DNA from: a bacterium
Lineage (GTDB): Bacteria; Patescibacteriota; Dojkabacteria; SC72; WJKH01
Reading direction: 5' to 3'
Assembly: GCA_029547225.1 (NCBI GenBank)
Contig: JAKPPS010000024.1
Coordinates: 893 to 64,892 of the forward strand
Length of the DNA stretch: 64,000 bases
This document shows, in pieces, positions 6,136 through 58,789 of this stretch (the first letter of the stretch is position 1; each line of letters begins with the position of its first letter). The position numbers and the translations under genes are program-made. Below the pieces are notes generated by a model that saw nothing but the letters and a program-made list of their open reading frames with translations, searched no databases and had not been told where the DNA came from.

Positions 6136-7299
6136 ATGTTAATCACTCCAACAGTTGATCCGGTAGCTAAAATTAAAGTAGTAGGTGTAGGTGGCGCAGG
6201 TGGCAACACGATAAATAAACTTGTCACAGAATTTGGTATTTCTGGTGTTGATCTTTTAGCCTTTAATACGGATGCTCAAGTCCTGAAGGCTTCTCAAGCT
6301 CATGTTACCCTACAATTAGGTAGTGAATTAACTCGAGGTCTTGGTGCTGGTGGTGATCATCTTTTAGGCGCTCAAGCTGCCGAGGAGAGTTTAGATGAAA
6401 TCCATGAGCATCTTGCCGGTTCTGATATGGTGTTTATCACAGCAGGTATGGGTGGTGGTACTGGAACAGGTGCTGCGCCAGTAGTTGCTGGTGTAGCGAA
6501 AAATCTTGGAGCATTGACAATTGCAGTTGTGACAAAACCATTCAATTTCGAAGGAAAGAAAAGAATGCAGGTAGCGGAAGAAGGCATTGAAGCTTTGAGA
6601 GATAAAGTTGATACACTTATTGTTGTTCCTAACCAAAGATTACTTGATCTTATCGATGAACCAATTTCATTTCTTGACGCAATGAAAAAAGTTGATAGTG
6701 TCTTGGCGGAAGGTGTTAAGAGTATAGCAACTTTAGTTACTCAAGCAGGATTTATTAATGTTGATTTTGCTGATGTAAAAACAATAATGACAAATGCGGG
6801 TACTGCTCTTATGGGTCTTGGTCGAGCCAAGGGTGAGAATAGAGCTGAAGAAGCTGCTCGTATAGCTACAAATAATCCTTTGCTTGATCTTTCAATCGAA
6901 GGTGCTACTGGAGTGCTATTTAGCATTACAGGTGGAGCAGACTTGTCTATGAAAGAGATTAATACAGCTGCAGAAATGATTGAAAACGCAGTAGATCCAA
7001 ATGCAAATATTATCTTTGGTGCTTCTATTGATGAATCAATGAATGATGAGGTATCAATTACTATTATTGCGACTGGTTTTGATTCTTCAAAGCAGGTTTT
7101 GACAAACAAAGCTCGGATGCAAAAACAGGTTGATACAAAACTTACAGGCAATGTTAATCCAGCTCAAACAACTAGCAATGATTTCGTAGACAGGTTTACG
7201 GTTACGGATGATACTCCGGCAGCATCAACCGCTTCAACTTCCTTACAGGACGATGAGGACGAGTTAGAAGTTCCGGCTTTCCTACGCAGAAAGAATTAA
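6136..7299 (+). CDS. ftsZ: cell division GTPase FtsZ
   Basis: GVGGAGGN, the tubulin signature GGGTGTGAAPV, NTDAQ, and the C-terminal FtsA-binding peptide LEVPAFLRRK. Confidence 0.97.
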   Translation: MLITPTVDPVAKIKVVGVGGAGGNTINKLVTEFGISGVDLLAFNTDAQVLKASQAHVTLQLGSELTRGLGAGGDHLLGAQAAEESLDEIHEHLAGSDMVFITAGMGGGTGTGAAPVVAGVAKNLGALTIAVVTKPFNFEGKKRMQVAEEGIEALRDKVDTLIVVPNQRLLDLIDEPISFLDAMKKVDSVLAEGVKSIATLVTQAGFINVDFADVKTIMTNAGTALMGLGRAKGENRAEEAARIATNNPLLDLSIEGATGVLFSITGGADLSMKEINTAAEMIENAVDPNANIIFGASIDESMNDEVSITIIATGFDSSKQVLTNKARMQKQVDTKLTGNVNPAQTTSNDFVDRFTVTDDTPAASTASTSLQDDEDELEVPAFLRRKN

Positions 7300-14264: not shown

Positions 14265-15020
14265 ATGAAAGACAGATTTGTCCAGATTGAGAGTAAAAAT
14301 GCAGTTCTTGAGATGTTAAAAGAGGGTAGAGTAGTAAAGCGAATTTTTATGGCACGCAATGCTTATAAAGATCCTAAAACATTAGAAATACTCAATATCG
14401 CGCAGAAAAAGGGTATCAATGTTGAAGTTGTAGCTCGAAGACAATTAGATCACAAACTTAAGGGTGGTAGTAAAGAAAGTCTTATTGCTTGGGTCGAGCC
14501 ATTGAATAGAATTTCTTTAGATCAGATGCTTGATAATATCTACAAGAGTGGTGATGATCCCTTCATATTAATCTTTGATGATGTTAAATATGCTCAGAAT
14601 ATCGGTGCTATTATGCGTACTGGTTTCGCGGCATATGTTAATGGTGTTATCTCTCCTATCAAGAAAGATGCATTTATAAATGATGAGATTATTCGAATTT
14701 CTATGGGAGCTTGTGAAAGGATTCCTATGATTGAAATGAACTTGTTTACTGCCATCAAAGAAATGCAAGATAATGGTATAAAGGTCTGTGCTTTAGATAT
14801 GGAGGGAGAACCTTATTTCGATGCAGACTTAACCGGACCAGTAGCTTTTATACTTGGTGCTGAGGATACTGGTGTTTCTAACAAGATTATGGAACGTGTT
14901 GATACAAGATTATCTATACCTATGAAAGAAGGAATTGGCTCACTAAACGTAAGTGCTAGTGCAGCTATCGTAATGTTTGAGAAAATCAGGCAAGAAGTAT
15001 TCAAGAATAGGGCAAAGTAA
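14265..15020 (+). CDS. SpoU/TrmH-family RNA 2'-O-methyltransferase (RlmB-like)
   Basis: LIFDDVKYAQNIGAIMRTG, FILGAEDTGVS and IPMKEGIGSLNVSASAAIVMFE are the three SPOUT motifs. Confidence 0.85.
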   Translation: MKDRFVQIESKNAVLEMLKEGRVVKRIFMARNAYKDPKTLEILNIAQKKGINVEVVARRQLDHKLKGGSKESLIAWVEPLNRISLDQMLDNIYKSGDDPFILIFDDVKYAQNIGAIMRTGFAAYVNGVISPIKKDAFINDEIIRISMGACERIPMIEMNLFTAIKEMQDNGIKVCALDMEGEPYFDADLTGPVAFILGAEDTGVSNKIMERVDTRLSIPMKEGIGSLNVSASAAIVMFEKIRQEVFKNRAK

Positions 15021-15108
15021 TAATTCTGCTTGTGAGCTGAATTAATCTGATAGAGGCACTTTTCTCGTAAATGCTGGGAAGTTTTACTGGATTGATTACG
15101 GAATCTAT

Positions 15109-15966
15109 TTAAACCAACTTTCCCATTATATCCTTAAACTCTTTGTCGTTAAGAAATCTAATTACAATTTTGCCACCTGTATTTAATTTCACTACATTGG
15201 CTGTATAACCGATTTTCTTTGAGAATTTTGAAATGATATCCTTATCTTCCTGGCTTAATAAATCAATAGATTTCTTTGCTGTCGGCTTTCCAAAATTGAT
15301 TTTACGGACTAAATCTTCAGTTTCTCTAACGCTCAATCCTCTTTTCACAACAATTTTTGCAGTAGCTATTGCTGATGAGATATCTGTTAGCCCAAGCAAA
15401 GCTCTGGCATGTCCTTCAGAGAGTTCATTGTTTAAGACCATAGACTTTACCTCATCGCTGTGCGCAAGTATCCTAATCTTGTTTGTGATTGCGACACGGC
15501 TCATGCCTACTTTTTTTGATATTATCTCGTGTGTTAATCCAAATTCATCTTGTAATTGTTTAAAAGCTAAGCCTTCCTCGATTGGATTTAGATCCTTTCT
15601 CTGTATATTTTCGATGAGGGCGAGCTCCAACATTTCTAGTGGTGAAGTATCTTTTATTACGACTGGTACTGTTTTGAATCCGGCAAGTTGAGCGGCTCTA
15701 AAACGCCTCTCTCCAGCAATAAGAAAATATTTATCGTTATTATTTTTATCAGCCGTGATGATCAAAGGTTGGATAATTCCATGTTCTCTTATCGAATCAG
15801 ATAATTCTATTAACTCATCTGGACTTATATTCATACGAGGTTGGTAAGGGTTAGCAGATATTTTTTCAATATCGAATTTTTCTATGTATGAAGAGCTATT
15901 TGCATAGCTGTCTGTGCTAATAAGAGCAGATAAACCTTTACCGAGTCGATTTGTTTCTTGATTCAT
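15109..15966 (-). CDS. parB: chromosome partitioning protein ParB
   Basis: NPYQPR, GIIQPLII and LIAGERRFRAAQLAG ParB-box motifs, followed by an HTH. Confidence 0.93.
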   Translation of the reverse strand: MNQETNRLGKGLSALISTDSYANSSSYIEKFDIEKISANPYQPRMNISPDELIELSDSIREHGIIQPLIITADKNNNDKYFLIAGERRFRAAQLAGFKTVPVVIKDTSPLEMLELALIENIQRKDLNPIEEGLAFKQLQDEFGLTHEIISKKVGMSRVAITNKIRILAHSDEVKSMVLNNELSEGHARALLGLTDISSAIATAKIVVKRGLSVRETEDLVRKINFGKPTAKKSIDLLSQEDKDIISKFSKKIGYTANVVKLNTGGKIVIRFLNDKEFKDIMGKLV

Positions 15967-15983
15967 AGTTATTGCTATACAAA

Positions 15984-16775
15984 TTAATTAAATCGTTCAA
16001 TAAACTCTTCTGCAAGCCGTTTATATGCTAAAGCACCAGTTGATTTTGGATCATATTCCTCTATAGTTTTACCGTGTGAAGGAGCCTCAGATAATCGAAC
16101 ATTGCGAGGAACTATTGTCGTAAAAACCTTTTCTTTGAAAAATTCTTTAACATCATTTACAACCTGTTCTGCAAGCTTGGTACGGCTATCAAACATTGTA
16201 AGTATTATCCCTCCGATTGCGAGTTTTGGATTGATTCCTTTTATCAGATCTACAGTTCTCAGTAATTGGCCAAGACCTTCAAGAGCGAAGTATTCACACT
16301 GGATTGGTACGATTAAGTAATCTGATGCATTTAATGCGTTTATTGTTAATAAACCTAGAGAAGGAGGGCAATCAATTATCACATAATCTATTTGCTGATT
16401 AAAATTCTCAAGAGCTTTTTTAAGCAATGTCTCTCGAGCGAGTACATTTACCATTTCAATTTCAGCACCTGCAAGCGAAAGATTTGATGGTATAAGAAAA
16501 AGGTTAGGTGTGTTTGTTGATACAAAAACCTGAGAAATTGGATCATTGTTGATAAGCACATCATATATGCTTTTATAGGGAGATGGCTGATTCTCGTCCC
16601 AACTGTCTGCTTTAAAAGCTTTTGTAAATCCAACCCCTGATGAAAGATTTGCCTGAGGATCAAGATCTACAAGTAATACTTTTTTACCTGTCAATGCGAG
16701 ATTAGCGCCTAAGTTCATAGCTGTAGTCGTTTTACCGACTCCACCTTTTTGATTAGCTATTACAAAAATCTTCAT
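15984..16775 (-). CDS. parA: chromosome partitioning ATPase ParA/Soj
   Basis: Deviant Walker A NQKGGVGKTTTA, VLLVDLDPQAN and IIDCPPSLG. Confidence 0.95.
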   Translation of the reverse strand: MKIFVIANQKGGVGKTTTAMNLGANLALTGKKVLLVDLDPQANLSSGVGFTKAFKADSWDENQPSPYKSIYDVLINNDPISQVFVSTNTPNLFLIPSNLSLAGAEIEMVNVLARETLLKKALENFNQQIDYVIIDCPPSLGLLTINALNASDYLIVPIQCEYFALEGLGQLLRTVDLIKGINPKLAIGGIILTMFDSRTKLAEQVVNDVKEFFKEKVFTTIVPRNVRLSEAPSHGKTIEEYDPKSTGALAYKRLAEEFIERFN

Positions 16776-17529: not shown

Positions 17530-17601
17530 TACCGCTACAGGGAATCGAACCCTGGTTTACAGGATGAAAACCTGTTATCCTAACCCCTAGATGATAGCGG
17601 C
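17530..17601 (-). tRNA. tRNA-Glu (anticodon UUC)
   Basis: Hand-folded cloverleaf: acceptor GCCGCTA/TAGCGGT (G1-U72 wobble), anticodon stem ACAGG/CCTGT with loop TTTTCAT, T arm CAGGG-TTCGATT-CCCTG. CCA is not encoded. Confidence 0.9.
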
Positions 17602-17617
17602 TTACTAACTAAGTATT

Positions 17618-17854
17618 TTACCTTATTTTCTTCTTTTTGTTAATATACTCTTGATCTTCTTCTAAAGTGGCTCTACGATAGCTATTAAGCTCTCGATCCA
17701 GTATAAATCTTCTACCGCATTTACATTGAACTATGGTCCTTTTGTCATCAAGTATCTCTCTTTTATTAGCTTTATCAAGTGGGTGAGTGCATCCAACACA
17801 TAATCTTCGCTCGATTAAGATTTTTTGAAATGGAGCGATTAATTTTTTAACCAT
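17618..17854 (-). CDS. small zinc-ribbon protein (hypothetical)
   Basis: 78 aa with CVGC...CKCGRRF cysteine pairs and a basic C-terminus. It lies between two tRNA genes. Confidence 0.45.
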   Translation of the reverse strand: MVKKLIAPFQKILIERRLCVGCTHPLDKANKREILDDKRTIVQCKCGRRFILDRELNSYRRATLEEDQEYINKKKKIR

Positions 17855-17921: not shown

Positions 17922-18038
17922 TGCCGAGGACAGGACTTGAACCTGCAACCCCGCTGACTATACTCAATCGATTATTAAGTACAAACAGCGGGGACATGCT
18001 CCTAAGGCATGCGTGTCTGCCAGTTTCACCACCTCGGC
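17922..18038 (-). tRNA. tRNA-Leu (anticodon UAG) with an extremely long variable arm (117 nt in total)
   Basis: Acceptor GCCGAGG/CCTCGGC, D arm GTG-AAACTGGCAGA-CAC, anticodon stem CATGC/GCATG with loop CTTAGGA, T arm GCAGG-TTCAAGT-CCTGT, discriminator A. The variable region is about 48 nt: CCCCGCTG...CAGCGGGG enclosing a further 11-bp AT-rich helix. Confidence 0.85.
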
Positions 18039-18163
18039 ACGTTCAGGAATACATTTTACAATATATTTAGTAATCAATCAATGTTTTCCCAATACCGTAA
18101 ATATGTAAAAGTATTATGAAAATGACTCAATATAAATGGAAAAATTACCAAACTCGAAATGAT

Positions 18164-18466
18164 TTATGACTCTTCAGAGCCAAAAGTAGCTCCCCAAACT
18201 TGAATATATCCAGCCTGAGTGAATGGGGCATTTGCGAGTGCCTCTTGATTACTTAAGGATGGTTTAACAATATCCTCACGTAATTCAGAAAAATCAATTG
18301 TTTGAGAATATCCCATTTTTACACTTGATGTATCAACTTGAGCAATTTTTCCAGCACTATCAAGTATAGATTGCATCTGTGGAGTAAACTCCTCAATCTC
18401 TTTATCGGTTAATTTTATTTTTGAAAGATGGGCAACATGCTCCAATAATTCTTTATCAAATTTCAT
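18164..18466 (-). CDS. gatC: Asp/Glu-tRNA amidotransferase subunit C
   Basis: 100 aa with LSKIKLTDKEIEEF...LDSAGKI..VDTS, located directly downstream of gatB. Confidence 0.85.
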   Translation of the reverse strand: MKFDKELLEHVAHLSKIKLTDKEIEEFTPQMQSILDSAGKIAQVDTSSVKMGYSQTIDFSELREDIVKPSLSNQEALANAPFTQAGYIQVWGATFGSEES

Positions 18467-18483
18467 ATAAGTCTTCGCAAAAA

Positions 18484-19971
18484 TTATTTACCTAGCTCTT
18501 TTTCGAGTAAATCCTTTACCTTGTTCGGATCAGCATTCCCTTTACTTAATTTCATGACGGCACCAACCAGAAACCCTATTACAGCTGTCTTACCTGATTT
18601 ATAATCAGTAACAGCTTTTTCATTTTCACTTAAAGCTTGCTTAACCATGTTCAAGAGAGCTCCGTCATCTGAAACTGCACTACTTTGTGCTTTCTCGATT
18701 TCTGAGCTAATATCGACTGATTTATCGTTGCTCAAGCAATTAAGTAGTATCTCTTTAGCTTTATTAGTTGTTATAGCTTTGGTATTCACTGACTTAGTAA
18801 GAATTGCTAGATCTTCAGGTTTTATAGATACATCATTTATTTCGATGCCATTCTTGTTTAGGTGTGAGAAAATAATGCCGGTTATCCAGTTTGCAGTAGA
18901 TTTTGCATCACCAGAAAGATCAAACGCTTTCTCAAAGTATTCTGCAATATCTCGTGATGCTGTCAAAACCTCAATATCATAATCTTGGAGGCCAAAGTCG
19001 TTTTTGTACCTTTCAGCTTTTGCATCTGGTAGCTCTACCAATTTTGTTGATATATTTGCGATATCTTGGTCAGATACATTAATAATCGGAATATCTGGTT
19101 CTCTAAAATATCTGTAATCTTCAGCAGATTCTTTTGATCTTTGAAATTCTGTAATACCTTTTTCTGCGTTCCAACCTCTGGTCTGCTGAGTTAGTTTTTT
19201 GCCCGCTTGCAAATCATCGGTCATCCTCTTTACTTCATATTCGATTGCTTTTTCTACGGCGGATATTGAACCGATGTTTTTTACTTCAGTTTTAGGATTT
19301 AATTTATAATCTCCAATAGGTTTAATCTTGTTATCAACCATCTGCCATTTACCTGTTTCCTGTATAGAAATATTTGGTTCACATCTCATCTGACCTTTTT
19401 CCATATCCGCGTCCGAGATACCAAGATATCTCGCAATTTGACGAATTTTTGTAGCATACAATTTCGCTTCTTGAGCTGACTTAATACATGGTTTTGTTAC
19501 GATTTCGATAAGTGGTACACCAGATTTATTGTAGTCAACTAGCGTATAATCAGCGCCTGTAGTTCCGTCTTTCAGATGAAATGTTTTGGCTACATCTTCT
19601 TCTTGATGTATTCTTTCAATTAATACTGTTGAAGTGGATCCATCCGGCAACTTAATATTTACAGTACCATTGTTACATAGAGGTTCATCGTATTGACTTA
19701 TCTGATAACCCTTTGGAAGATCAGGATAGAAGTAATGTTTACGATCAAATTTGATATGTTTTGCAATAGTACAGTTTGTGGCTAATCCCATTAATATGCA
19801 CAGTTCTAAGGCATGTTTATTAGGGACAGGTAAAGCGCCAGGTAAGCCAAGACATTTAGGGCATGTAAGAGTGTTAGGTTCTTTCTCGAAATATTGTGAA
19901 GAACAAGAGCAGAACATTTTAGATTCTGTTTTGAGCTGCAAATGAATTTCTAAACCGATTATTGTATCCAT
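18484..19971 (-). CDS. gatB: Asp/Glu-tRNA amidotransferase subunit B
   Basis: IGLEIHLQL, the CSC...CPKCLGLPGALPV zinc site, DYNKSGVPLIEIV, RCEPNISI and the C-terminal YqeY-like tail. Confidence 0.95.
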   Translation of the reverse strand: MDTIIGLEIHLQLKTESKMFCSCSSQYFEKEPNTLTCPKCLGLPGALPVPNKHALELCILMGLATNCTIAKHIKFDRKHYFYPDLPKGYQISQYDEPLCNNGTVNIKLPDGSTSTVLIERIHQEEDVAKTFHLKDGTTGADYTLVDYNKSGVPLIEIVTKPCIKSAQEAKLYATKIRQIARYLGISDADMEKGQMRCEPNISIQETGKWQMVDNKIKPIGDYKLNPKTEVKNIGSISAVEKAIEYEVKRMTDDLQAGKKLTQQTRGWNAEKGITEFQRSKESAEDYRYFREPDIPIINVSDQDIANISTKLVELPDAKAERYKNDFGLQDYDIEVLTASRDIAEYFEKAFDLSGDAKSTANWITGIIFSHLNKNGIEINDVSIKPEDLAILTKSVNTKAITTNKAKEILLNCLSNDKSVDISSEIEKAQSSAVSDDGALLNMVKQALSENEKAVTDYKSGKTAVIGFLVGAVMKLSKGNADPNKVKDLLEKELGK

Positions 19972-19983
19972 GATGCTATTATA

Positions 19984-21096
19984 TTATTGTCGTAGTGTGT
20001 CGTCAACGAAAACAGGTATATCTTTTTTACTTTCATTATTGATTATATCTTCCGATTTATCGAGATAGAGATATATAGTTCCTCTACCTGAGCCTTTTGT
20101 GCTTAGATAGCCCTTTTCAAGTAAGTCTTGTAAATCTCTAAAAGCAGTCATAAATGAAATACCCATAAGCTTTGAATATTCTTGACGAGAAATTTTCTTA
20201 TGAATATTTAAGTACTCAATCGCCTTTATTTGTCGATTATTTAAGTCGAGAGAAAGCTGTGCGTGATTTTTAACTTTTGATTCATAGTTCGAAGAAATAT
20301 TTGTTTCCAAAGAGATAGTTTCTAACAAAATAGAATAGAGTAGGGCTTCGATAAAAGCAGTCTGATCTTTCTTAGATTTAGAAATTTTGAATGCTTCTAA
20401 AAGATTCTCACCAAGATTATTATAGATTTTACTGATCACTTGGAGATTATCAATGTTATATCCGAACTCCTTGAGAAGTAATCCTGTAAATATTACAGTT
20501 GTCACCTGATTTCCAACGAAAAAAGGAGATTTATCAATCATTTCATAGTTTAGTATCGCAAGTCGAATAAGTTTATGAATTTTAATTTTAGGATCTACGG
20601 TCCAATCGCATAAATCATTGAGAAATGATGAGACATCTAATTGTGGATAATAATCCCTATACTTGTACCAATTGTCATAAATATCGTTTGGTTTCTCACT
20701 AAAAGTTCTAAATTTCCCTGTTTCCCATTCATCTACGATACCTGACATAGCAAGTCTATTGATGTGAATTAGTAAATCAGCAGAAGGTTTAATAAATTGC
20801 ATCTGATTGTAGGTCTTAACAAACTCATTAATACTACGATAGTTAATAAACAGTTTAAGCTTAGTTTTATCAGAAGGAAGCTCTTTACCTTTTTGAATCA
20901 ATAAAGCTTTATTTAACCCAATTTTGTAACCTGTAAGTTCTCCGAGGAAATAAATATCATCTGTCTTTTGAAGCTGATAAATATCGTTTTTCACATTGTA
21001 AGGTAACGGAAGTCCTTTAATTTTATTAGCAGAGAGTTCAATACGGATAATATAATCCAATATCAAGTTTGTTATAGTAAAAGTAGGTAAATTCAT
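19984..21096 (-). CDS. Fic/Fido-domain-like protein with a degenerate active-site motif and a C-terminal winged-helix domain
   Basis: SPFFVGNQVTTVIF occupies the position of the Fic motif HPFxxGNGRxxR (His replaced by Ser, GNGR replaced by GNQV). The C-terminus (ISRQEYSKLMGISFMTAFRDLQDLLEKGYLSTKGSGRGTIY) looks like a wHTH. Confidence 0.5.
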   Translation of the reverse strand: MNLPTFTITNLILDYIIRIELSANKIKGLPLPYNVKNDIYQLQKTDDIYFLGELTGYKIGLNKALLIQKGKELPSDKTKLKLFINYRSINEFVKTYNQMQFIKPSADLLIHINRLAMSGIVDEWETGKFRTFSEKPNDIYDNWYKYRDYYPQLDVSSFLNDLCDWTVDPKIKIHKLIRLAILNYEMIDKSPFFVGNQVTTVIFTGLLLKEFGYNIDNLQVISKIYNNLGENLLEAFKISKSKKDQTAFIEALLYSILLETISLETNISSNYESKVKNHAQLSLDLNNRQIKAIEYLNIHKKISRQEYSKLMGISFMTAFRDLQDLLEKGYLSTKGSGRGTIYLYLDKSEDIINNESKKDIPVFVDDTLRQ

Positions 21097-28559: not shown

Positions 28560-29993
28560 TTAATTAAGACTTTTGAAATTTAATTCGTCTTCAAGAGCTT
28601 TGGCCACATTCAATATTAGTTGTTCATCGAAATGACGGCCAAAAATCTGAAAACCCGTTGGCAATCCTTCAGAAAGTCCGTTTGGTATAGAAATACCTGG
28701 CAAACCTGTTAGAGAACTAGTTTCAGCTAAAACATCAGCCATTTCACCAAATAATGGATTCAGTTGTGACACTCCTAATTTTGGTGCAATTGTAGCTGTT
28801 GAGGGACCAATAATTAAATCTACAGTTTTAAGTATATTTAAAACATCATCTCTTAATAATGCTCGTACTTTCTCAGCTTGTTTAAAGAATTCATCAGCAT
28901 AACCTGATGACAACGAAAATGTACCAGTCATAATACGTCTTTTTGCCTCACTTCCAAAGCCTTTTCCTCTTACTGCTTCATAATATTCAGCAATCTGTCC
29001 TTTTAATTCTTCTGGAACGCAATATCGTGTGCCATCATAACGACTCAAGTTCGATGAAACCTCACTGCGACATACTATTGTGTAAACTGCAATGGCATAT
29101 GCTGGATCCATCATTTCTACATCAACTATTTGCCCACCGAGAGATTTTATTAATTCGATTGTTTCTAAAGTATTCTTTCTTACACCTTCTTCAAGTTGAA
29201 GATTCATGTATTCTTTTGGTAATCCAAATTTCATGCCTTTAAAAACAGATGGATCAAGTTTAGCCAAATAATCTTCAACTGGTTTGTTTACAGATGTATT
29301 GTCGTTTTCATCTTTTCCTGCGATTGTTGAAAGTATTAAAGCTGCGTCTTCAACACTTTTAGTAATTGGACCAGGACAATCAAGTGATGAACCCATTGCA
29401 AGTACACCATATCTGGATACACGCCCATATGTTGGCTTTAGGCCAACAGTGCCACACCATGATGCGGGTAATCGTATTGAGCCAGCTGTTTCAGTGCCTA
29501 GTGAAGCAGAGCACATATCTGCTGCTACAGCTGCTGTAGATCCTCCACTTGAGCCACCAGGTATCCGACTTGTATCCCATGGATTTTTTGTTGCACCATA
29601 TGCAGATGTTTCTGTTGACGAACCATGACAAAACTGATCAAGATTCGTTTTGCCTATGATAATTGCACCTTCATCAAGAATTTTTGAAGTTACGGTAGAT
29701 TCATATACAGGCTTGTAATTATCAATGATTTTGGATGCAGAAGTAGTTCGGAGAGATCTAGTTGAAAATGCATCTTTTACAGCTATAGGAAGTCCACCCA
29801 ATTTTTTAGTTTTATCGGCTTTTTCTGCTTCTTCAATAGCTTTCTCATTTATAGTTATGAAAGCATTAATTTCAGGATTTTTTGTTTCAATCTGCTTCAA
29901 GTAATATTCTGTTAATTCAACAGGCTTTAATTCACCTTGATCAATAAGCTTCTTGGATTGTACCAATGTAAGATTTGAAAGATTCATGAACAA
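28560..29993 (-). CDS. gatA: Asp/Glu-tRNA amidotransferase subunit A
   Basis: Amidase signature GGSSGGSTAAVAA, KDAF...T(T)SAS, and length (477 aa). Confidence 0.93.
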   Translation of the reverse strand: MFMNLSNLTLVQSKKLIDQGELKPVELTEYYLKQIETKNPEINAFITINEKAIEEAEKADKTKKLGGLPIAVKDAFSTRSLRTTSASKIIDNYKPVYESTVTSKILDEGAIIIGKTNLDQFCHGSSTETSAYGATKNPWDTSRIPGGSSGGSTAAVAADMCSASLGTETAGSIRLPASWCGTVGLKPTYGRVSRYGVLAMGSSLDCPGPITKSVEDAALILSTIAGKDENDNTSVNKPVEDYLAKLDPSVFKGMKFGLPKEYMNLQLEEGVRKNTLETIELIKSLGGQIVDVEMMDPAYAIAVYTIVCRSEVSSNLSRYDGTRYCVPEELKGQIAEYYEAVRGKGFGSEAKRRIMTGTFSLSSGYADEFFKQAEKVRALLRDDVLNILKTVDLIIGPSTATIAPKLGVSQLNPLFGEMADVLAETSSLTGLPGISIPNGLSEGLPTGFQIFGRHFDEQLILNVAKALEDELNFKSLN

Positions 29994-56581: not shown

Positions 56582-57166
56582 ATGAATAATCATAAATCAA
56601 GTGATAACAATAAAATACTAATACATGCATGTTGTGCAGATTGCCTTTCAAAGATCCTTACAGACAGCCAAATCGATGAATTGGATAAGGTTGTATATTT
56701 TTATAATCCTAATATTCATCCAAGGTCAGAATATCTAGCTCGATTATGTGCAATTCAAGCTGTATGTAAGGAAAAAGATATTAAAATTGTTATCGCAGAT
56801 TGGTCTCCAAAACAATATTTTAATGCACTTAAAAAAGCAAGTAATGCGGATTCAGATATTTCTACGAATAGGTGTGTATCATGTTGGAGATTGCGATTAG
56901 GCATGAGTATTGATTATGCTTTTCACAATATGTTTACTTACTTTACTTCGACATTATTAACAAGTCACTACATGGATCATGAGTCAATAATAGAGATTTC
57001 GAAAGAATTAATTGAGACTAAATCGAATCAGAATATCAAGCTCATAATACCTTCAGAGGATTGCTGTGATGTAAAGACAGGCGGGTTTTATAAGCAGAAT
57101 TATTGTGGTTGTGTATATTCACTTATCGAGAAATATCACGAAAAGTTTTTAACTAGCGAGAATTAA
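56582..57166 (+). CDS. queH: epoxyqueuosine reductase QueH (DUF208)
   Basis: LIHACCADC, YFYNPNIHP, RCVSCWRLRL and YKQNYCGCVYS cysteine motifs. Confidence 0.85.
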   Translation: MNNHKSSDNNKILIHACCADCLSKILTDSQIDELDKVVYFYNPNIHPRSEYLARLCAIQAVCKEKDIKIVIADWSPKQYFNALKKASNADSDISTNRCVSCWRLRLGMSIDYAFHNMFTYFTSTLLTSHYMDHESIIEISKELIETKSNQNIKLIIPSEDCCDVKTGGFYKQNYCGCVYSLIEKYHEKFLTSEN

Positions 57167-58789
57167 TGCTTTAATTCCATATCCATATTCACCAGTAAAC
57201 TCAAAGCCTCTTTTCATGTAATATTGTCGTGTACCGACGGCAGAAATAACTCCGAGTTTCTTGCAATTGTAGGATAAAGCTATTTTTTCTGCTTCCTTGA
57301 GTAATTGAGTTCCAATTCCTCTATGCTGTGTATATTGAGAATCACTATTTTGTGTTATCGATATCGGTTCACTTGGGCCATATACATGTAATTCTCGAAT
57401 ACAGCAATCAAAATCTTCAATTAGTTCAGCATTCATACTGTTTAGTATAGTTTTATTCGCTTGTTTAGTATTATTCAATATTGATAAACGTAGAAAGCCT
57501 GCAATTTTATCGTGTTTTGTTCGGAAAGATAAGAAAAACTCTATTGTATTATTAGTATTATATTCTACTGTATTTAATGTTAACTCTCTGATAGAAGGTT
57601 TTTCTTCTTTAATTTCATTACATCTTATACAATTGCATTTAAAACCATCTTGGTGCATTTTCTTAAGCACGTATTCACGAAGGTTTGTAAGCGTAGTACC
57701 TGCAATAATATTATTAGTAGGAATATCCCTAAATAATCGAGATATTCTAGTGTATGGTGGAACAATTCGTTTACATTTTACAAGAAGTTCAATTAAATCG
57801 CTTGTTGAGTATGGTTTATACTTATTCTTCTTATAAAGCTCATATAGTGCAGTTTTTTCAACAAGCACACAAGGATATATCTTCATTTCATCAGGATAAA
57901 TTCCGGTATTTTTATCAAATAATGATTTAAAGTCTTCATAATCCTTTTCGATTGTTGCTTGATAAAGATTACACATCCAGTGGACCATAATCTTAAATCC
58001 ATTTATTCTTAGAAGATTGATTGCTTCAAAAGTATCTTGAGCTGTATGCATCCTATTATTGGCAAGCAGTATTTGATCATTCATAGATTGTACTCCAAGT
58101 TGGACCTTAGTAACTCCAAATTTACGATATTCTTTAATACTATCGATAGATATTTTGTTGGGTCTTGTTTCAATTGACATACCTACACAACGCGATAATG
58201 CAGTTTCATTGATGCTTTGTAATTCATCCAACGAGTAAGTTGCATATTTATTCAAATCAAGATGGTTTAATGCAATAAAAATTTTTTTAATAAAATCGAC
58301 TCTATATTCAAACGAATAATCGTCCCAAGTGCCACCCGATATTATTATCTCTACTTTATCGGTTGAATGATTGTTGTTTCGAAGCGATTCGAGCCTGCGA
58401 ATAATCTGAAAATAAGGATCGTAATTTTGTCCAATAGCTCTCTGAACTGCAGGTTCATCGGAAAGATAACTTTTAGGTAAAGTATTATCTGTGGGACAAA
58501 ATACACAATTTCCACTGCAAAAATAAGGTTTAGTAAAAATTGTGATAGGGACAATCCCTGACATTGATCGAACTCTTTTTACTGATAATAACGACTTAAG
58601 CTTAGGATTATTCAAATAAACATTAGCTCTTTGCTCTGAAGACAAGGCATTGATATATGAGATAATCTCATGCTTTGAAAGTAGCCTACCATTTTCATAT
58701 GTGAATTTTTTACTTAATATCTGCCATTTATCACCATTAAGAATAGGTTTATTAATGATAGATAAAATAGCCTCATTCTTTGTAAGCAT
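57149..58789 (-). CDS. elp3: Elp3-type radical-SAM/GNAT tRNA uridine-34 carboxymethyl-modification enzyme
   Basis: Radical SAM CSGNCVFCP (CxxxCxxC), GVQS, and a C-terminal GNAT QHRGIGTQLLKEAEKIA. At 546 aa it is collinear with the Elongator subunit 3 architecture. Confidence 0.85.
   Translation of the reverse strand: MLTKNEAILSIINKPILNGDKWQILSKKFTYENGRLLSKHEIISYINALSSEQRANVYLNNPKLKSLLSVKRVRSMSGIVPITIFTKPYFCSGNCVFCPTDNTLPKSYLSDEPAVQRAIGQNYDPYFQIIRRLESLRNNNHSTDKVEIIISGGTWDDYSFEYRVDFIKKIFIALNHLDLNKYATYSLDELQSINETALSRCVGMSIETRPNKISIDSIKEYRKFGVTKVQLGVQSMNDQILLANNRMHTAQDTFEAINLLRINGFKIMVHWMCNLYQATIEKDYEDFKSLFDKNTGIYPDEMKIYPCVLVEKTALYELYKKNKYKPYSTSDLIELLVKCKRIVPPYTRISRLFRDIPTNNIIAGTTLTNLREYVLKKMHQDGFKCNCIRCNEIKEEKPSIRELTLNTVEYNTNNTIEFFLSFRTKHDKIAGFLRLSILNNTKQANKTILNSMNAELIEDFDCCIRELHVYGPSEPISITQNSDSQYTQHRGIGTQLLKEAEKIALSYNCKKLGVISAVGTRQYYMKRGFEFTGEYGYGIKALILAS

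Follow-up and report, generated by a model that had tools for sequence, protein, structure and literature searches.

A tRNA-Leu(UAG) gene with a hyper-extended variable arm in Candidatus Dojkabacteria, apparently derived by palindromic insertion

Insertions in rRNA are common in CPR bacteria, and bacterial 23S rRNA can carry IVSs in its helices 25 and 45, which are typically about 90–150 nt long or more and are excised by RNase III without religation. In tRNA genes, the group I introns have a catalytic core of about 200 nt or more and are located in the anticodon loop, and the archaeal introns carry the BHB motif, with two 3-nt bulges 4 bp apart at the exon-intron junctions. A different kind of extension is seen in tRNA-Sec and the allo-tRNAs, whose acceptor branch measures 13 bp or 12 bp. 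CPR genomes are small and usually have one copy per tRNA. Group I introns do occur in the tRNA genes of Patescibacteria, and the survey that describes them concerns anticodon-loop insertions and never mentions the variable arm (PMC13011429). The tRNA-Sec and allo-tRNA families combine 8/4, 9/3, 8/5 or 9/4 acceptor/T branches with long D stems and SerRS identity (PMC5389517, PMC7609411). As regards the variable arm of ordinary tRNAs, engineered hairpins at this position leave tRNAs active in E. coli (PMC7590224), and a tRNA with the Spinach aptamer in its V-loop still supports growth (PMC5397188), even if the Spinach fusions are only marginally active according to Mukai (PMC7590224); charging, and use by the ribosomes of E. 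coli, remain possible for tRNAs of this kind (PMC7590224, PMC5397188). On the other side, long rigid variable arms can hinder A-to-P translocation at the ribosomal A-site finger (PMC9561287). For E. coli tRNA-Leu, neither the sequence nor the folding of the variable arm affects leucylation, sequence-specific reading of this arm being unique to Archaea, and the C2-G71 pair is an antideterminant against SerRS (reviewed in PMC9976931). The searchable literature yielded no account of a bacterial tRNA whose variable arm is hyper-extended in the way presented here. What is new here is a class II tRNA-Leu with such an arm, which was probably acquired by a palindromic insertion and, as far as the sequences tell, on at least two occasions in one CPR clade.

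The gene was found in a 64-kb stretch of DNA (the window, that is, the whole of the sequence analysed) from a member of Candidatus Dojkabacteria (CPR/Patescibacteria), a group of tiny, uncultured bacteria. It is 117 nt long, occupies positions 17922..18038 of the minus strand, does not encode the CCA end and reads GCCGAGGUGGUGAAACUGGCAGACACGCAUGCCUUAGGAGCAUGU-[CCCCGCUGUUUGUACUUAAUAAUCGAUUGAGUAUAGUCAGCGGGG]-UUGCAGGUUCAAGUCCUGUCCUCGGCA. Its 5' part can be divided into GCCGAGG U G GUG AAACUGGCAGA CAC G CAUGC CUUAGGA GCAUG U, and the 3' part that follows the hairpin into UU GCAGG UUCAAGU CCUGU CCUCGGC A. The Rfam tRNA model (RF00005) covers the whole gene, from model position 1 to 71, with 49.5 bits versus a gathering score of 29, and its alignment treats the extra 44-45 nt as a single insertion within the variable region; ARAGORN reported six other tRNAs in the window and missed this one. 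The core comprises a 7-bp acceptor stem and a 5-bp T stem (a 7/5 acceptor/T architecture), a 3-bp D stem, a 5-bp anticodon stem, and 7-nt anticodon and T loops, with the leucine anticodon UAG at 18002..18004 (minus strand, read 18004-18002) inside the loop CUUAGGA, as placed by the sequence and the Rfam alignment, and the discriminator A73 at 17922. Outside the variable arm, the window tRNA agrees with 70 normal orthologues at every invariant position; its sequence forms all the cloverleaf pairs tested (24/24), and the anticodon loop sequence TTAGGA is identical in 72/72 orthologues. When 16 sequences were aligned, the cloverleaf, including four basal pairs of the variable arm, was paired in 99.7% of the cells, with 13 pairs altered on both sides, a covariation score matched by none of 500 shuffles. 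All the leucine identity elements considered (A73, C2-G71, A14/A15, G18G19 and U48) are kept, their numbering following our own alignment with E. coli tRNA-Leu, and at both the D loop AAACUGGCAGA and the U preceding the T stem the gene either equals the 70 normal orthologues or stays within their range of variation. The hinge elements A14, A15-U48, G18G19 and A20a, together with C2-G71, which are listed in PMC9976931, are likewise present. The gene is thus a class II tRNA-Leu(UAG) with a canonical core, and a real gene. The first-pass annotation of this DNA, which described a type II tRNA-Leu(UAG) with a canonical core, a 3-bp D stem, the loop CUUAGGA and A73, was right on each of these points, as judged from the sequence and from Rfam. 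By contrast, its suggestion of a non-canonical tRNA-like RNA does not stand, given the location of the gene in the orthologous tRNA-Leu(UAG) slot, as described below, and the conservation of every invariant position.

The exceptional part of the molecule is its variable region, which spans 48 nt (17947..17994, minus strand) and is made of a U, a 45-nt hairpin (17949..17993, minus strand) and UU. The hairpin, CCCCGCUG U UUGUACUUAAU AAUCG AUUGAGUAUAG U CAGCGGGG, starts with an 8-bp GC-rich stem (CCCCGCUG/CAGCGGGG), continues after a U·U mismatch into 11 bp, 3 of them G·U, and is closed by the loop AAUCG, so that a GC-rich base carries an AU/GU-rich distal part. The MFE structure obtained with ViennaRNA for the whole tRNA contains exactly this arrangement, with an energy of -54.7 kcal/mol (z = -5.7) that none of 200 shuffles reached. 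On the tRNA strand the isolated hairpin folds with -26.1 kcal/mol, as against -16.9 kcal/mol for the other strand, and nothing sampled in the window at a length of 45 nt is more stable: among 25,582 windows of this size, taken every 5th position on both strands of the 64 kb, none reached -25 kcal/mol. The length of the helix is by itself unexceptional in AT-rich DNA when G·U pairs are allowed, since 20 levels were attained in 6 of 30 shuffles; it is therefore the energy, the precise position of the hairpin within the variable arm and the state of the relatives that make the case. A difference of 9 kcal/mol favours the helix on the tRNA strand over its complement, in which the G·U pairs become A·C mismatches, and this strand specificity hints at a constraint acting at the RNA level. 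The dimensions that had been annotated for this region (48 nt, an 8-bp stem, the U·U mismatch, 11 pairs including 3 G·U and a 5-nt loop) were all correct, and so was the view that the insert is not random junk: energy, placement and relatives all point to a deliberate-looking helix.

The genomic context of the gene is conserved. Upstream lie gatB (18484-19971) and gatC (18164-18466), both on the minus strand and both identified by NCBIfam equivalog matches; this pair (18164..19971) defines, by its order in the relatives, the orthologous slot. Downstream, also on the minus strand, there are a gene for a 78-aa CxxC...CxC protein (17618-17854) and a tRNA-Glu(UUC) (17530-17601), two conserved neighbours that together span 17530..17854, and lepB, parA and parB complete the locus. 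As in the relatives, the tRNA is found 125 nt downstream of gatC and precedes the 78-aa gene, the tRNA-Glu and lepB. A GatB-based scan that took one genome per species provided 80 loci, most of them labelled Candidatus Dojkabacteria, whose GatB proteins are at most 71% identical to that of the window. The order gatB-gatC-tRNA-Leu(UAG) was recovered with a custom cloverleaf scan in most of these 80 loci, where the contig reaches far enough downstream; in the remaining ones the gene is normal but narrowly fails the strict scan, is cut by the contig end, or was not found in the stretch. Since most relatives share the gatB-gatC slot, the window gene is the orthologue of the standard tRNA-Leu(UAG) of the clade, and it is the only copy within the 64-kb window. 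No LeuRS was recognisable within these 64 kb. A promoter-like site, TTGATT-17 nt-TAAAAT (18053..18081, minus strand), ends 14 nt upstream of tRNA position 1, and it is a consensus match only, as sites of this type are no more frequent in the region than in shuffles.

The comparison of the orthologous genes leaves little doubt about the direction of the change. Among 72 Dojkabacteria loci, 70 have a variable region of 15-18 nt and the other two have one of 47 or 48 nt, with none in between; the 48 nt of the window are about three times the norm of the clade and fall outside its class II range of 15-18 nt. Among the 70 normal orthologues, 41 have the same flanks of the arm, U... and ...UU. Of the two relatives that are the closest we found, L127 ranks first by the 78-aa neighbour protein, through which both were reached; it shows 75% identity to the window in this protein, 75% in ParA and 74% in ParB. 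Its tRNA gene measures 85 nt and differs from that of the window, outside the arm, by one compensated acceptor pair and one D-loop base. The L127 variable region, U-CCCU-GUAAU-GGGG-UU, agrees with the window gene in its flanks and in the CCC.../...GGGG base of the stem. L128, a continuation of the L123 genome (both come from one sequencing run and overlap at a contig end), also has a normal tRNA-Leu(UAG), of 86 nt. The LepB homologues offered a flat range of identities, 55-61%, as a route to sister genomes. Aligned with L127 and 14 other orthologues, the window gene shows a 37-nt palindromic segment (17953..17989, minus strand) in place of the 5-nt loop GUAAU of an L127-like arm, a net gain of 32 nt that leaves the flanking U and UU unchanged. 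Because the close relatives have the short, L127-like arm, the window allele is the derived one, and the long arm is a recent, lineage-specific insertion and not an ancient retained feature; by the same alignment, the arm grew from a helix of about 4 bp to one of about 20 bp by a palindromic insertion in one step. The retained structural extension put forward in the first-pass annotation is thus refined to a derived insertion, given the 15-18 nt of 70/72 orthologues; the comparison with orthologues that it proposed finds the insertion absent from these 70 of 72 Dojkabacteria genes, with a 5-nt loop at the same place in L127.

We also looked for further long arms and for further copies of the insert. 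When 241 million metagenome records were scanned with a pattern for Dojkabacteria-type tRNA-Leu(NAG) having a variable region of about 25-55 nt, 32 loci came up, all of them spurious (adjacent tRNAs, assembly duplications, random matches or Ns), and hence neither intermediates nor additional long arms among the alleles covered; the pattern, which allowed no T at one IUPAC position, excludes the window allele and hides about 25% of alleles. In viral contigs, three matches were obtained for a long-arm tRNA-Leu, and the one examined (L087) is a normal tRNA-Leu followed by a chance downstream GGTTC motif. The palindromic segment has no other copy in the window, even if 3 mismatches are tolerated, and blastn-short detected none there or in the loci retrieved from other species, the only other matches of the segment being to the same gene in six contigs (L001-L006).

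These six contigs come from six samples, carry the identical 117-nt gene, and have names (JGI, k141_, NODE_, scaffold) that point to different assembly pipelines. Their loci are collinear with the window and 99.3-100% identical to it, with 0-43 other differences over about 6 kb, and the exact GatC protein, encoded 125 nt upstream of the tRNA, was present in at least 23 contigs. Thus, the 117-nt sequence is unchanged among strains that differ by up to 0.7% elsewhere, and the lack of SNPs within the tRNA is what chance would give at the observed SNP density. The long-arm allele is, by these sequences, fixed in the population. Library artefacts can generate palindromes, and a palindromic chimera or another assembly or sequencing error therefore had to be considered; however, the same 117 nt in contigs from six samples, named as the products of different pipelines and 99.3-100% identical over their loci, effectively refute this explanation, to which we assign a negligible probability. 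The assembly error that the first-pass annotation had named as a possible refutation thus finds no support, the same gene being present in six independent metagenome assemblies.

The second long arm belongs to L064, in which a 116-nt tRNA-Leu(UAG) with a variable region of 47 nt is found at the orthologous position. The L064 hairpin, CCCGUCAAGUCAUUAGG-CAAUGUCUUA-CCUAAUGGCUUGACGGG, shows no sequence relationship to that of the window, comprises 17 bp (about 20 helix levels with one C·A mismatch and two A-U pairs of the loop included) and does not change from a GC-rich base to an AU-rich tip. The MFE of the whole L064 tRNA is -58.8 kcal/mol (z = -4.9). With relaxed filters it scores 46.1 bits in Rfam, and it is missed by both the default Rfam filters and ARAGORN; otherwise the Rfam search returned only weak matches to miRNA hairpin families, reflecting the long hairpin. 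No repeat copies of the L064 hairpin were found. In a rough neighbour-joining tree of GatB, L064 is a separate branch of the same broad clade as the window, and the genomes placed between the two lineages (L124, L056 and that represented by L123/L128) all have normal arms. Since the alternative needs one gain and several exact reversions, two gains are the more parsimonious history, and the long arm would have been gained independently at least twice in one CPR clade. The two hairpins, of 44-45 nt and about 20 helix levels each, share neither sequence nor loop motif, and plain neutrality gives no explanation for the equal size of two independent inserts.

When compared with the systems described above, the window tRNA is closest to the class II tRNA-Leu of E. 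coli and of the other Dojkabacteria, with which it has in common the 7/5 architecture, the 3-bp D stem, the AA..GG..A D loop, A73, C2-G71, the UAG anticodon with G37, and the U.../...UU flanks of the arm, the Dojkabacteria orthologues sharing also the slot. However, the normal orthologues have a variable region of 15-18 nt, an arm of 4-5 bp and a total length of 84-87 nt, as opposed to 48 nt, about 20 levels and 117 nt in the window. The differences from the other systems are these: (i) As in the tRNA introns of Patescibacteria (PMC13011429), an extra sequence interrupts a CPR tRNA gene, here in the variable loop. Searched in Rfam at E<=1, the window tRNA gives the tRNA family and an insignificant match to an antisense RNA, and nothing else. 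A group I intron or ribozyme is rejected, as the annotation had anticipated: the insert is of 37 nt, lies in the variable loop and not in the anticodon loop, has no Rfam match at this threshold and has no catalytic core. (ii) An archaeal BHB intron is likewise rejected, there being no 3-nt bulges in a helix that is continuous save for a single 1x1 U·U mismatch. (iii) The insert is not a detectable repetitive palindromic element (REP/MITE-like) or mobile element, having neither a second copy nor a comparably stable hairpin elsewhere in the 64-kb window. (iv) The tRNA-Sec and allo-tRNAs (PMC5389517, PMC7609411) also have a longer-than-usual arm, but that of the window is far longer and is borne by a tRNA with leucine identity, and the 7/5 configuration together with the 3-bp D stem rules out membership of these families. 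(v) The engineered tRNAs, with MS2, boxB or SECIS on allo-tRNA (PMC7590224) or with V-Spinach (PMC5397188), have a hairpin at the arm tip or V-loop and an intact L-shaped core, as here; they are artificial and ligand-binding by design, whereas the window arm is of natural origin, it is fixed in a population living in the wild, and no aptamer motif can be recognised in it. (vi) With the 23S rRNA IVSs, the window gene shares a helix in place of the terminal loop, a sporadic and lineage-specific distribution and sequences that are unrelated between cases; the IVSs differ in residing in rRNA and in measuring about 90–150 nt or more, while the insert described here is in a tRNA and measures 37 nt; excision, a property of the IVSs, is only a possibility here.

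How would such a molecule work? The reading that we favour, and which seems to us on balance the most likely, is a functional tRNA with a retained and tolerated "expansion segment". The tRNA would be transcribed, possibly from the promoter-like site just upstream, its ends would be matured and CCA added, and it would then be leucylated normally, because the bacterial LeuRS reads A73 and the D/T-loop hinge (A15-U48, G18G19 and A20a) and not the variable arm. It would decode CUA and CUG, and possibly all the CUN codons. The long arm would remain on the mature tRNA, solvent-exposed and tolerated, with little or no function of its own, as a tRNA counterpart of the rRNA insertions common in CPR bacteria. 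The indifference of LeuRS to the arm and the activity of the engineered arm hairpins make this tolerance plausible; the possible clash of a rigid 20-bp arm with the A-site finger during translocation (PMC9561287) may count against it. The codons themselves are still in use: in the long ORFs of the window, CUA and CUG account for 266 of 17,345 codons (1.5%), and their share of the leucine codons is 0.168 in the window and 0.143 in L064, within the 0.11-0.355 spanned by relatives with normal arms, of which L124 is also in the lower part of the range.

Other explanations have to be weighed against the retained arm. The insert may behave as an IVS, the arm of about 20 bp being cut after transcription by RNase III or another double-strand-specific nuclease, to leave a shortened, nicked variable arm and a functional tRNA in two pieces, which the acceptor stem, the tertiary core and the 8-bp GC-rich base would keep joined. 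Its anatomy, an extended helix in place of a terminal loop, matches that of the rRNA IVSs, as do its sporadic occurrence (2/72 lineages) and the unrelated sequences of the inserts of the two lineages. In addition, both inserts extend over about 20 helix levels, close to two turns of a helix, and RNase III substrates belong to this size class; a constraint on length without shared sequence fits a protein that recognises double-stranded RNA independently of its sequence; in the window, the GC-rich base would survive the removal of the AU/GU-rich tip. Against this, the cleavage is hypothetical, no natural bacterial tRNA functioning as two pieces is known to us, the contrast between base and tip is missing from L064, and the agreement in size comes from two cases only. 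The RNase III signature motif is also absent from the 64-kb window, which is little informative about the whole genome. IVS-like behaviour is the main rival of the retained arm, and we regard it as unlikely. The more specific proposal that the arm is an RNase III substrate and that tRNA-Leu(UAG) functions as two non-covalent pieces or with a trimmed, open arm, with at least two origins in Dojkabacteria, would explain the equal length of the inserts as about two helical turns, and we consider it improbable, more so than IVS-like behaviour in general.

It could also be that the gene is disabled or decaying and that CUN codons are decoded by another tRNA-Leu gene located elsewhere. ARAGORN rejects the gene, the CUA+CUG usage is somewhat low in both long-arm species, and with only 64 kb of the genome at hand there is room for a second tRNA-Leu(UAG) or other CUN decoders. 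Yet the gene shows no disruptive change anywhere outside the variable arm, all the invariant positions and the 24 core pairs being kept and the flanks of the arm exactly preserved; the insert is a near-perfect helix and not degraded sequence, the gene is in the single orthologous slot, and CPR genomes usually have a single copy per tRNA. Moreover, CUA and CUG still make up 1.5% of codons, and the same architecture arose and persisted in L064. The intact core, the identity elements and the use of CUA/CUG argue against a pseudogene but are no proof of expression, and we give this explanation a rather small chance. A gain-of-function handle, that is, an arm serving as docking site for a protein or RNA with a role in sequestration or regulation, in protection from a nuclease that targets tRNA-Leu, or in recruiting a modification enzyme, would account for a helix that G·U pairs, in place of A·C mismatches, maintain on the RNA strand and for the same size reached in two lineages, and engineered variable-arm hairpins can recruit proteins (PMC7590224). 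However, the two inserts have no loop motif or sequence in common, 70/72 relatives do without a long arm, and no evident lineage-specific partner gene was seen in the neighbourhood of the tRNA, the 78-aa neighbour protein being present also in species with a normal arm; we find this explanation very unlikely.

To our knowledge, the 117-nt gene is among the longest tRNA genes. With a retained arm, the RNA would measure about 120 nt (with CCA), would be among the longest natural elongator tRNAs and would provide a natural test of the bulk that LeuRS, EF-Tu and the ribosome tolerate in a variable arm, which is of relevance to the engineering of tRNAs and to CPR bacteria with their minimal ribosomes; the functional significance of the arm itself may be nil. 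If it is trimmed, the IVS phenomenon would extend from rRNA to tRNA, with a fragmented but functional tRNA. That two independent palindromic insertions into one and the same loop should be equal in size suggests some mutational or selective mechanism behind them. There is finally a practical side to these genes, which escape detection: ARAGORN missed both alleles, and the default filters of Rfam found that of the window and missed that of L064. Genomes with long-arm alleles may consequently be wrongly scored as lacking tRNA-Leu(UAG), which distorts estimates of completeness and inferences about the genetic code.

The second long-arm tRNA-Leu(UAG), encoded in the related Dojkabacteria locus L064 (4140-4255), was detected with a score of 46.1 bits when the filters of the Rfam cmscan search were relaxed, having gone undetected both by ARAGORN and by cmscan at default filters; automated annotation would list this tRNA as absent. 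In the metagenome scan for tRNA-Leu(NAG) genes with long variable regions, the longest genuine ones measured 24-25 nt and belong to the GC-rich contig L116, which carries a tRNA-Leu(CAG) at 6199-6292 and a tRNA-Leu(GAG) at 6385-6478, the two lying ~90 nt from each other with a further tRNA-like stretch in between; variable regions of this size are moderately long. In the case of the sister species, the Logan contigs L122 and L123 both break off at their 3' ends before tRNA-Leu is complete, within its conserved 5' half, and L123 continues on a separate contig, L128. These ends are likely to be graph breaks at tRNA k-mers common to co-occurring Dojkabacteria.

Between the long-arm tRNA-Leu of the window and tRNA-Glu lies a gene (17618-17854, minus strand) whose position is identical in all the related loci inspected for it. 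Its product, 78 aa long, has a CxxC...CxC motif; it matched no Pfam family, and a word-indexed search returned only 4 homologues. Directly upstream of gatB there is a 370-aa ORF (19984-21096, minus strand), which had no NCBIfam match; in relatives its counterpart is a syntenic gene of 364-370 aa, and one of these gives no more than a faint HTH_DeoR signal. The arrangement of the gat genes differs: while in locus L129 gatB, gatC and gatA are contiguous (1-2409) and the tRNA-Leu comes after gatA, in the window gatA (28560-29993, minus strand) stands ~8.5 kb away from gatB-gatC (18164-19971, minus strand).

Two further features of the window deserve mention. At parB/parA (~15000-16000) the GC skew switches sign and gene orientation turns convergent, with plus-strand genes on the left side and minus-strand genes on the right; this may mark a replication landmark or merely reflect coding-strand composition. 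Further along, 57149-58789 on the minus strand encodes a protein of 546 aa that scores 448 bits as an Elp3-type tRNA U34 radical SAM/GNAT modification enzyme, the curated cut-off being 350 bits. Since this family is chiefly archaeal and eukaryotic, its occurrence in a CPR bacterium is notable, and it may be relevant to the tRNAs with U34, Leu(UAG) included.
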